Sequence record: PZ445526.1
Length of the DNA stretch: 64,000 nucleotides
Source of the DNA: a phage
Direction: 5' to 3' (one strand)
A model generated the notes under the pieces. It made no database searches. It had not been told where the DNA came from and was given only the letters and a program-made list of their open reading frames with translations. This document shows positions 38,957 through 39,785 of the stretch, one piece after another. The translations under genes and the position numbers were made by a program. Numbering within the stretch: position 1 is the first letter of the stretch; every line of letters begins with the position of its first letter.

Positions 38957-39032
38957 TGGTCGAGGCAGTAGGGATCGAACCTACGACCCAGGACTTAGAA
39001 GGTCCTTGCTCTTCCTTCTGAGCTATGCCTCG
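38957..39032 (-). tRNA. tRNA-Arg (anticodon UCU)
   Basis: Hand-folded cloverleaf: acceptor CGAGGCA/UGCCUCG, anticodon loop CUUCUAA, T-loop GGUUCGAUCC, encoded CCA. Confidence 0.8.
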
Positions 39033-39036
39033 GATT

Positions 39037-39111
39037 TGGCGGACGTGATAGGATTCGAACCTATAACCAATCGCTTAACAGGCGATCGCTCTGCCATTGA
39101 GCTACACATCC
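39037..39111 (-). tRNA. tRNA-Asn (anticodon GUU)
   Basis: Acceptor GGAUGUG/CACGUCC, anticodon stem AUCGC/GCGAU with loop CUGUUAA, T-loop GGUUCGAAUCC, encoded CCA. Confidence 0.75.
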
Positions 39112-39115
39112 AAAT

Positions 39116-39202
39116 TGGTGGGGAGTGATGGAGTCGAACCACCCGAGTCGCAATGACAATGGATTTACAGTCCACACCGCTACCTCTACGGGATAACTCC
39201 CC
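39116..39202 (-). tRNA. tRNA-Tyr (anticodon GUA), long variable arm
   Basis: Acceptor GGGGAGU/ACUCCCC, anticodon loop CUGUAAA, long extra arm, T-loop GGUUCGACUCC, encoded CCA. Confidence 0.7.
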
Positions 39203-39212
39203 CAAATTAATT

Positions 39213-39287
39213 TGGTGGCCCTGGGTGGAATTGAACCACCATCTGGCGATTATGAGTCGCTTGCTTGAACCTTCCAGCTACAGGGCC
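39213..39287 (-). tRNA. tRNA with CAU anticodon (T4 tRNA-Ile counterpart, or Met)
   Basis: Acceptor GGCCCUG/CAGGGCC, anticodon loop CUCAUAA, T-loop GGUUCAAUUCC, encoded CCA; same position as T4 tRNA-Ile. Confidence 0.7.
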
Positions 39288-39288
39288 T

Positions 39289-39364
39289 TGGTGCTGATTG
39301 ACGGAATCGAACCGCCGACCTTCTCATTACAAGTGAGTTGCTCTACCTACTGAGCTAAATCAGC
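39289..39364 (-). tRNA. tRNA-Thr (anticodon UGU)
   Basis: Acceptor GCUGAUU/AAUCAGC, anticodon loop CUUGUAA, T-loop GGUUCGAUUCC, encoded CCA. Confidence 0.75.
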
Positions 39365-39369
39365 AAAAC

Positions 39370-39459
39370 TGGCGGAGGCGATAGGATTTGAACCTATGAG
39401 TCGCCGGAGCGACTGCCGGTTTTCAAGACCGGTGCATTAAACCACTCTGCCACGCCTCC
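39370..39459 (-). tRNA. tRNA-Ser (anticodon UGA), long variable arm
   Basis: Acceptor GGAGGCG/CGCCUCC, anticodon stem CCGGU/ACCGG with loop CUUGAAA, long extra arm, encoded CCA. Confidence 0.75.
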
Positions 39460-39461
39460 AG

Positions 39462-39535
39462 TCTCCGTGGCAGGATTTGAACCTACGACATTCTGCTCCC
39501 AAAGCAGACGCTCTACCAAACTGAGCTACACGGAG
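39462..39535 (-). tRNA. tRNA-Pro (anticodon UGG), CCA not encoded
   Basis: Acceptor CUCCGUG/CACGGAG, anticodon stem UCUGC/GCAGA with loop UUUGGGA; 3' end reads ...GAGACUGG. Confidence 0.75.
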
Positions 39536-39545
39536 TAAATTAAAT

Positions 39546-39619
39546 TGGAGCGGATAATGAGAATCGAACTCACATCATCAGATTGGAAGTCTGAGGTAAT
39601 GCCATTATACGATATCCGC
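39546..39619 (-). tRNA. tRNA-Gly (anticodon UCC)
   Basis: Acceptor GCGGAUA/UAUCCGC, anticodon loop CUUCCAA, T-loop GGUUCGAUUCU-like, encoded CCA. Confidence 0.75.
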
Positions 39620-39624
39620 AAATT

Positions 39625-39711
39625 TGGTGCGAGAAGTGGGACTCGAACCCACAAGGAAATCATTCCGCAGCATTTTAAGTGCTGTGCCTTTACCAATTTG
39701 ACCATTCTCGC
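39625..39711 (-). tRNA. tRNA-Leu (anticodon UAA), long variable arm
   Basis: Acceptor GCGAGAA/UUCUCGC, anticodon stem CAGCA/UGCUG with loop CUUAAAA, long extra arm, encoded CCA. Confidence 0.75.
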
Positions 39712-39712
39712 G

Positions 39713-39785
39713 CTGGGAATAAAGGACTCGAACCTTTGCATCCTGGAATCAAAATCCAGTGCCTTACCAACTTGGCTAATTCCCA
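39713..39785 (-). tRNA. tRNA-Gln (anticodon UUG), CCA not encoded
   Basis: Acceptor UGGGAAU/AUUCCCA, anticodon stem CUGGA/UCCAG with loop UUUUGAU, T-loop GGUUCGAGUCC. Confidence 0.75.

Follow-up and report, generated by a model that had tools for sequence, protein, structure and literature searches.

A ten-tRNA cluster as a probable segB-less, T2L-type allele of the T-even tRNA operon, with proposed roles in tRNA supply and anti-defence

Why should a T-even phage carry genes for the transfer RNAs (tRNAs) tRNA-Tyr and tRNA-Asn, both of which are missing in T4? This question is raised by a cluster of ten tRNA genes in PZ445526.1, a stretch of phage DNA of 64,000 nucleotides (nt) which was analysed at its full length and is called the window in the following. 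The window most probably belongs to Tequatrovirus, and its cluster represents with the same high probability a segB-less, T2L-type allele of the T-even tRNA operon, for which a mode of expression as well as roles in tRNA supply and anti-defence are proposed. The locus as such is already known: it is annotated in hundreds of Tequatrovirus genomes, it was mapped in 2008 and its function was addressed between 2024 and 2026.

Gene content and identity of the locus

ARAGORN, applied to the whole window, called ten tRNA genes and none beyond these ten, all of them on the minus strand between 38957 and 39785. In the 5'-3' direction of the transcript the order is Gln(UUG), Leu(UAA), Gly(UCC), Pro(UGG), Ser(UGA), Thr(UGU), a tRNA with the anticodon CAU, Tyr(GUA), Asn(GUU) and Arg(UCU). 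Independently, the Rfam family RF00005 returned the same ten tRNAs. Nine of them scored 59-74 bits at a gathering score of 29, with tRNA-Asn at the top (74.1 bits), and tRNA-Tyr reached just 30.2 bits (E = 0.003). Anticodons and order agree exactly with an earlier sequence-only reading of the cluster, including those of tRNA-Asn and tRNA-Tyr, which ARAGORN calls with the same anticodons. The genes are:

39712-39785, minus strand: tRNA-Gln(UUG); ARAGORN and Rfam (67.4 bits); first C of CCA only
39625-39711, minus strand: tRNA-Leu(UAA); ARAGORN and Rfam; CCA encoded; identical to T4
39546-39619, minus strand: tRNA-Gly(UCC); ARAGORN and Rfam; CCA encoded; followed by a 10-nt spacer
39461-39535, minus strand: tRNA-Pro(UGG); ARAGORN and Rfam; no full CCA; junction to Ser as in T4
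39370-39459, minus strand: tRNA-Ser(UGA); ARAGORN and Rfam; CCA encoded, where T4 has TAA
39289-39364, minus strand: tRNA-Thr(UGU); ARAGORN and Rfam; CCA encoded
39213-39287, minus strand: CAU tRNA, best read as Ile2 (lysidine) type; ARAGORN, Rfam and alignment; CCA encoded
39116-39202, minus strand: tRNA-Tyr(GUA), class II with a long variable arm; ARAGORN, Rfam and covariation; CCA encoded
39037-39111, minus strand: tRNA-Asn(GUU); ARAGORN, Rfam and alignments; CCA encoded
38957-39032, minus strand: tRNA-Arg(UCU); ARAGORN, Rfam and alignment; CCA encoded

Read directly on the minus strand, CCA is fully encoded in eight of the ten tRNAs, and Gln and Pro encode its first C only, as had been noted before. 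The 3' end of Gln (...CCCAG-C) adjoins G1 of Leu, and that of Pro (...GGAGA-C-T) is followed by G1 of Ser. The need for the host CCA-adding enzyme, which had been deduced from these two ends, is correct and ordinary, and the dependence on this enzyme is smaller than in T4 (two versus four CCA-less tRNAs). The intergenic spacers measure 0, 5, 10, 1, 5, 1, 10, 4 and 4 nt in the order of the genes. The range of 1-5 nt, as originally proposed, needs a small correction, as the Gly-Pro and CAU-Tyr spacers have 10 nt; between Gln and Leu there are 0 nt.

A segment of 951 base pairs (bp) around the cluster is 99.5% identical to Tequatrovirus ECO4, the closest record found. With this segment as query 897 phage records matched, 398 of them over at least 80% of the query, and the neighbouring Tyr-Asn block was found in 396 phage records with 95-100% identity. 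The surroundings are syntenic with both T4 and ECO4, with trna.2, trna.3, trna.4 and internal-protein genes upstream and rnaD, rnaC and a terminator downstream. T2L, RB1 and RB3 have no segB but a block of about 1250 bp with tRNA-Met(CAU), Tyr, Asn, an Arg isoacceptor and open reading frames (ORFs) (Brok-Volchanskaya et al. 2008, PMC2330249). The segB-less gene order of the T2L type is present in the window: Gln-Leu-Gly-Pro-Ser-Thr are followed by CAU, Tyr, Asn and an Arg isoacceptor different from the tRNA-Arg of T4 and T6, and there is no segB ORF. The likeness to T2L, RB1 and RB3 rests on the published description; the closest sequenced comparison is ECO4.

In addition, the preferred recognition site of SegB, 27 bp long, is located in tRNA-Asn (PMC2330249). 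A site of this kind lies in the window at the 3' end of the Asn gene:

39035-39061, minus strand: putative preferred 27-bp site of the SegB homing endonuclease, GGTTCGAATCCTATCACGTCCGCCAAA

It fits the published SegB consensus GGTTCRANTCC ... CCAR. Compared with the corresponding site in tRNA-Ser of the window, GGTTCAAATCCTATCGCCTCCGCCAGT, it differs at exactly positions 6, 16, 18, 26 and 27, and the bases of the Asn site relative to the Ser site (G6, A16, G18, A26 and A27) occupy the five positions which are named for T2L (PMC2330249). Tyr and Asn had been described as lying beyond the T4 set. Both the T4 annotation and an ARAGORN run on the T4 locus confirm that T4 has eight tRNAs and neither Tyr nor Asn. 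However, the polarity has to be reversed: T4 is the allele with segB in place of Tyr and Asn (PMC2330249), and it is without both tRNAs because the segB gene sits at that place.

The presence of Tyr and Asn could be a polymorphism of selfish DNA, reflecting only the homing of SegB, with both tRNAs as near-neutral passengers. Such an explanation finds the preferred SegB site within the Asn gene itself, and segB in place of Tyr and Asn in T4 and of Asn only in T6. Furthermore, after co-infection of T4 and T2L about 1250 bp with Met, Tyr, Asn and Arg are excluded, and the region was termed non-essential (PMC2330249). However, the Tyr-Asn block is kept at its high identity in some 400 records, an Asn-Tyr pair recurs on unrelated plasmids of about 110 kb, and an anti-Septu effect has been measured for the Tyr tRNA of T6 (PMC13096335). 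Homing as the only cause is, on balance, unlikely.

The content of the locus varies further among relatives. Many close relatives possess a tRNA-His(GUG) between Asn and Arg and have eleven tRNAs in total. In phage U115 (locus 1638-1827) the Asn-Arg insertion of about 190 bp consists of tRNA-His(GUG) and a 114-nt spacer, and in the window only the four nucleotides AATC are found there. Gene counts in relatives are lower bounds, since ARAGORN skipped the annotated tRNA-Thr of the T6 record (T6 locus 2679-2753). The Thr genes of T4 and of the window are called by the program, unlike that of T6.

The CAU tRNA is best read as a lysidine-dependent Ile2 for AUA codons, as its sequence suggests. It shares the 15-nt core of the anticodon stem-loop, GCGACTCATAATCGC, with E. 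coli ileX, and its acceptor stem GGCCCTG/CAGGGCC has the pairs C4-G69 and C5-G68, which are determinants for TilS. The orthologue is labelled tRNA-Ile2 in the U115 record and the counterpart in T4 is annotated as tRNA-Ile, from which the isoacceptor of the window has diverged. An elongator or initiator tRNA-Met was ruled out by alignment, as the CAU tRNA is unlike metT and metY.

The CAU and Tyr tRNAs of the window are nearly identical to those of the rV5-like Vequintavirus phage magaca (947-1020 and 1506-1591); T4 tRNA-Ile is quite different. This likeness suggests that unrelated coliphage families have exchanged tRNA genes. The anticodon stem of Gln(UUG) differs from that of T4 by compensatory changes, and its anticodon loop UUUUGAU is that of E. 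coli glnW. The T4 loop is CUUUGAC, with differences at positions 32 and 38, and T4 is here the one which is not host-like.

tRNA-Tyr and tRNA-Asn between supply and defence

Any role of tRNA-Tyr presupposes an intact gene, and its labels in some GenBank records cast doubt on this. It is called tRNA-Pseudo-GTA in ECO4, and across the ECO4 and HP3.x records the labels are 'tRNA-Pseudo-GTA' or 'tRNA-OTHER'. For a decayed pseudogene, and hence against a functional tRNA, speak these labels, the Rfam score of 30.2 bits at the threshold of 29 and an irregular D-stem, the D-arm helix being 81% paired with ambiguous register. The cloverleaf was therefore examined in seven homologues (the window, T6, U115, magaca as an rV5-like phage, a T5-like phage, an E. 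coli plasmid and E. coli tyrU). Over the whole cloverleaf 96.3% of the cells are paired, against 39-61% with partners slid, both partners have changed in eight pairs, and none of 500 shuffles reached the observed covariation score. Pairing reaches 96-100% in the acceptor, anticodon, variable and T stems, where substitutions between phage families are compensatory, and the gene encodes its CCA. Moreover, the near-identical T6 tRNA is visible on Northern blots and rescues infection (PMC13096335), and the T5 tRNA-Tyr with a replaced anticodon is an effective amber suppressor, as given in the T5 record. On the basis of covariation and of the published expression of the T6 tRNA (PMC13096335) the pseudogene interpretation was rejected; its probability is minimal.

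The window tRNA-Tyr is identical to that of T6 at 85 of 87 positions, and both differences lie at stem positions. The entire variable arm is shared with T6, including C48, and a stretch of 32 nt from the variable arm through the T arm, TTGTCATTGCGACTCGGGTGGTTCGACTCCATC, is exactly as in the tRNA-Tyr of T5. The variable arm of E. coli tyrU is 2 nt shorter and different. With the Tyr tRNAs of rV5-like phages and of E. coli plasmids of about 110 kb the identity is about 94-96%. When 5426 complete E. coli genomes were searched with the Tyr gene in distant mode, no chromosomal match was obtained; 273 places were found in 269 of these genomes, all on plasmids of about 110 kb, which are probably phage-plasmids.

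The variable arm is the part of tRNA-Tyr at which Septu EcB88 cuts, namely at C48/A49 (PMC13096335). Overexpression of T6 tRNA-Tyr or its SegB-driven amplification restores the plating of T6 against Septu (Chihara et al. 2026, PMC13096335), deletion of the T6 tRNA region results in a phage sensitised to Septu, and T4, which has no Tyr, is unable to escape (PMC13096335). In the T5 family tRNA-Tyr counteracts PtuAB of retron-Eco7 (PMC11555353), and the resistance of the T5 tRNA is ascribed to its distinctive variable loop (PMC13096335). Anti-Septu activity of a tRNA-Tyr 98% identical to that of the window and anti-retron activity of T5 Tyr are thus shown in the literature for close homologues; a rescue on defence-carrying hosts is published only for T6, T5 and SP15, and direct cleavage by PtuAB of Ec78 was not reproduced in vitro.

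The sequence-only reading had suggested Tyr and Asn as possible replacements for host tRNAs destroyed by defence systems and had named anticodon nucleases of the colicin E5 type. The general idea holds for Tyr, given its orthology to the tRNAs of T6 and T5 (PMC13096335, PMC11555353), and the E5 mechanism does not. The window tRNA-Tyr has the 7-nt anticodon loop CUGUAAA, as in E. coli tyrU, and tRNA-Asn has CUGUUAA, as in asnT; neither loop contains a change that could evade E5. Because of this identity an enzyme like E5, which would cleave tRNAs with G34 or Q34 for NAY codons, should cut the phage copies equally well. The documented nucleases act elsewhere, in the variable arm of Tyr and between positions 40 and 41 in the stem of Asn, and not between 34 and 35. 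Colicin E5 itself is a bacteriocin and not an intracellular phage defence, and its substrates are Tyr, His, Asn and Asp. Three of these four are accessory tRNAs here, if His of the relatives is included, and a naive draw of three from the 12 amino acids outside the T4 set would give this result with a chance of 4/220, about 0.02. However, this figure is post hoc and points to no known defence, and a literature search yielded no paper that connects T-even tRNAs to E5. A specific direction of Tyr and Asn against E5-type nucleases is consequently regarded as very improbable. More speculatively, the accessory Tyr, Asn and His (three of four Q34 tRNAs) may point to some intracellular defence that depletes this class.

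For tRNA-Asn and tRNA-Thr another nuclease comes into consideration. AriB of the PARIS system cuts between positions 40 and 41 in E. coli tRNA-Lys(UUU) and Thr(UGU) and, as a secondary target, in Asn(GUU); its motif is U36-A-A-U39-C40/A41, and the change of U39 to A alone abolishes the cleavage of tRNA-Lys (PMC12409363). In T5 the tRNAs for Lys, Thr and Asn together neutralise PARIS (PMC12409363). The anticodon stem of the window Asn reads U36-A-A-G39-C40-G41, with G39 likewise in T5 Asn and U39 in E. coli asnT, and that of Thr reads U36-A-A-U39-G40-A41 against UAAUC/A in E. coli thrU, with G40 also in T4 Thr. According to the alignment the cleavage motif is altered in both tRNAs, which suggests that Asn and Thr of the window may resist AriB. 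The same theme is met on the E. coli plasmids of about 110 kb, which carry an Asn with C39, a phage-type Tyr and a Thr(UGU) with G39.

It could be that the accessory tRNAs of T-even phages were selected in general as isoacceptors that resist or buffer nucleases, with Asn (G39) and Thr (G40) as AriB-resistant replacements. We consider this a tentative idea of rather low probability; such a role is not yet reported for a T-even tRNA-Asn. If it is true, the picture of anti-defence tRNAs in phages would widen from T5 to the T-even group, and it could become easier to predict phage host ranges on clinical E. coli with these systems.

Several observations weigh against a role of the cluster in anti-defence. 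T-even phages carry no tRNA-Lys, the main target of AriB, and T4 is PARIS-sensitive (PMC12409363), so that escape would not follow from an AriB-resistant Asn alone. Septu EcB88 also cleaves the tRNA-Tyr of T6, and one copy does not free wild-type T6 from restriction (PMC13096335); a single Tyr gene would therefore give at most partial protection. In T6 segB lies beside Tyr and the pair can be amplified, whereas the window is without segB and this escape route is absent in cis.

The codon usage was determined from 73 long ORFs of the window with 17,122 codons and 35% G+C. Asn and Tyr account for 6.28% and 4.59% of the residues, compared with about 3.9% and 2.8% in E. coli, so an extra supply of both tRNAs makes sense on demand alone. 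Among their codons those ending in U dominate about 3:1 (AAT 47.7 and TAT 35.3 per 1000). The A-ending codons TTA (29.1), CAA (24.2), GGA (22.3), ACA (19.9), TCA (18.9), CCA (13.7), ATA (11.9) and AGA (11.3), frequent in the window, are those read by the other eight tRNAs. Together with the host-like anticodon loops of Tyr and Asn and with codon compensation being termed the prevailing view (PMC13096335), these values would fit a purely translational function, in which all ten tRNAs only match the AT-rich usage of the phage to the host pool and any anti-defence effect is incidental. However, Lys is equally over-used (7.55%) and no tRNA-Lys is encoded. His is under-used (1.65%) and is still the third accessory tRNA in close relatives; amino-acid demand alone thus fails to explain the accessory set, and this discrepancy also counts against the supply part of the roles proposed here. 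In addition, a Tyr allele with a non-host variable arm is common to T-even, rV5-like and T5-like phages and to phage-like plasmids, and for the Tyr tRNAs of T6 and T5 anti-defence phenotypes have been measured (PMC13096335, PMC11555353). Pure supply is accordingly a possibility of some weight, though we are inclined to doubt it.

Expression, surroundings and significance of the operon

Outside the tRNA genes the following features were located:

39855-39879, minus strand: putative MotA-type middle promoter; MotA box TGCTTTA (39879-39873), 12-nt spacer, -10 element TATTAT (39860-39855)
38588-38938, minus strand: ORF of 116 amino acids, unknown function, between Arg and rnaD; phrog_3355 (E = 1.5e-52)
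38472-38588, minus strand (5' boundary approximate): homologue of T4 rnaD (species 2 stable RNA); alignment, 87.6% identity
38327-38465, minus strand: homologue of T4 rnaC (species 1 stable RNA); alignment, 97.8% identity
38247-38276, minus strand: intrinsic-terminator-like hairpin (38276-38253, 10 pairs, 6 G-C) with T run; conserved in T4

Over the 70 nt upstream of Gln the window matches T4 base for base, and the middle promoter from which the entire T4 cluster is transcribed sits just upstream (PMC2330249, citing Broida and Abelson). A generic sigma-70 scan gave fewer sites than shuffled sequences and none upstream of Gln; the MotA-type promoter was found by its motif instead. At the other side the hairpin with its T run is likely to be the end of the operon, judged from its form, and the T4 transcript terminates after the species I RNA gene (PMC2330249). 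MotA box, -10 element and terminator hairpin are all present and conserved with T4.

The records of ECO4 and U115 list the 116-amino-acid ORF as a hypothetical protein; it had no Pfam match, and its only match in PHROGs was the unknown-function family phrog_3355. It is probably one of the T2L ORFs 'trna.1/trna.2' (PMC2330249). Ahead of it, 18 nt after the CCA of Arg, a GAGG resembles a ribosome binding site, and T4 has no ORF there. A search of 36000-43000 against Rfam returned only the ten tRNAs; rnaC and rnaD, for which no family was found, were located by aligning them with the annotated T4 features. Within rnaC there is a T arm like that of a tRNA, CCGGGTTCAAGTCCCGG.

How the operon is expressed and processed in this phage, and whether Asn has any part in defence, we infer by analogy. 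Following T4 biology, the MotA-type middle promoter at about 39879-39855 would give rise to one minus-strand precursor that comprises the ten tRNAs, the ORF, rnaD and rnaC and ends at the hairpin 38276-38253. RNase P of the host would then produce the 5' ends, host 3' nucleases would trim the A/U-rich spacers and the host CCA-adding enzyme would complete Gln and Pro. The pathway of tRNA processing in T4 is said to go back to classical work of McClain, Seidman and Deutscher. In translation Gln, Leu, Gly, Pro, Ser, Thr, Ile2 and Arg would read the A-ending codons heavily used by a phage of 35% G+C, and Tyr and Asn would boost single isoacceptors for two amino acids which are used about 1.6 times more than in the host. 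The same surplus may buffer translation under host defence, namely against Septu and PtuAB of retron-Eco7 in the case of Tyr and against AriB of PARIS in the case of Asn and Thr(UGU). The SegB cut site inside Asn would lead to conversion of the Tyr/Asn allele in a mixed infection with T4.

As it stands the finding matters little, the architecture having been published in 2008 and the defence role of the near-identical T6 Tyr in 2026. The locus may still serve as a clean example of how SegB homing and tRNA-targeting immunity (Septu, retron-Eco7, PARIS) would jointly shape the tRNA set of a phage. The single lead worth bench work is the possible AriB resistance of the T-even Asn (G39) and Thr (G40).

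Five copies in total of a cassette of 55-70 nt are distributed over the two sides of the tRNA operon, at 37054-37445 and 40734-41841. On the minus strand each cassette has an element GTTTAC ... TACTAT, similar to a T4 early promoter, followed by a ribosome binding site. Four or five ORFs downstream of the cassettes (37607-38173, 40831-41073, 41132-41440 and 41501-41833) have the common N-terminus MKT(Y/F)xEF(I/L)xEA. Together they resemble a variable set of genes for internal, capsid-targeted proteins, equipped with repeated regulatory cassettes.

Comparison with known systems

T4 shares with the window the locus, its flanks and the promoter region, and the run Gln-Leu-Gly-Pro-Ser-Thr recurs there with the same order and almost the same sequences. 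CCA is missing alike at the Gln-Leu and Pro-Ser junctions of both phages. However, T4 has segB between Ile and Arg, where Tyr and Asn are located in the window, and its Ile and Arg are isoacceptor sequences different from the CAU and Arg tRNAs of the window. Four tRNAs of T4 are CCA-less (Gln, Pro, Ser and Ile), whereas Ser and the CAU tRNA of the window encode CCA. Between Arg and rnaD T4 has no ORF, unlike the window.

T6 takes an intermediate position with the arrangement Tyr-segB-Arg, in which segB replaces Asn only. It is without Asn, Pro and Ser, and its Ile and Arg are of the T4 type.

The annotation of T5 counts 25 tRNA genes (one marked as pseudogene), Lys among them, and T5 has strong promoters dedicated to them; the operon of the window has ten tRNAs and no Lys. 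The 5' half of its Tyr gene is diverged, and the T5-like Tyr is about 85% identical overall. T5 Asn has G39 in common with the window Asn, the sequences being otherwise quite different.

On the E. coli plasmid pEC881_2 (NZ_CP019027.1, 2921-3747) Asn-Tyr are followed by Thr(UGU) and Ser(UGA), and the Tyr is 94% identical with the same variable arm as in the window. The order Asn before Tyr is the reverse of that in the window, Asn (C39) and Thr (G39) have sequences of their own, and the carrier is a plasmid and not a T-even phage. Both of these tRNAs are without the U39 that AriB of PARIS needs, and the tRNA block adjoins a DNA ligase and a tyrosine recombinase.

T2L, RB1 and RB3 are described with the arrangement of the window. 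Like the window, they have no segB, the CAU-Tyr-Asn-Arg block follows the genes from Gln to Thr, and the SegB site is located in Asn. For T2L two ORFs are mentioned, and in the window one ORF lies between Arg and rnaD.

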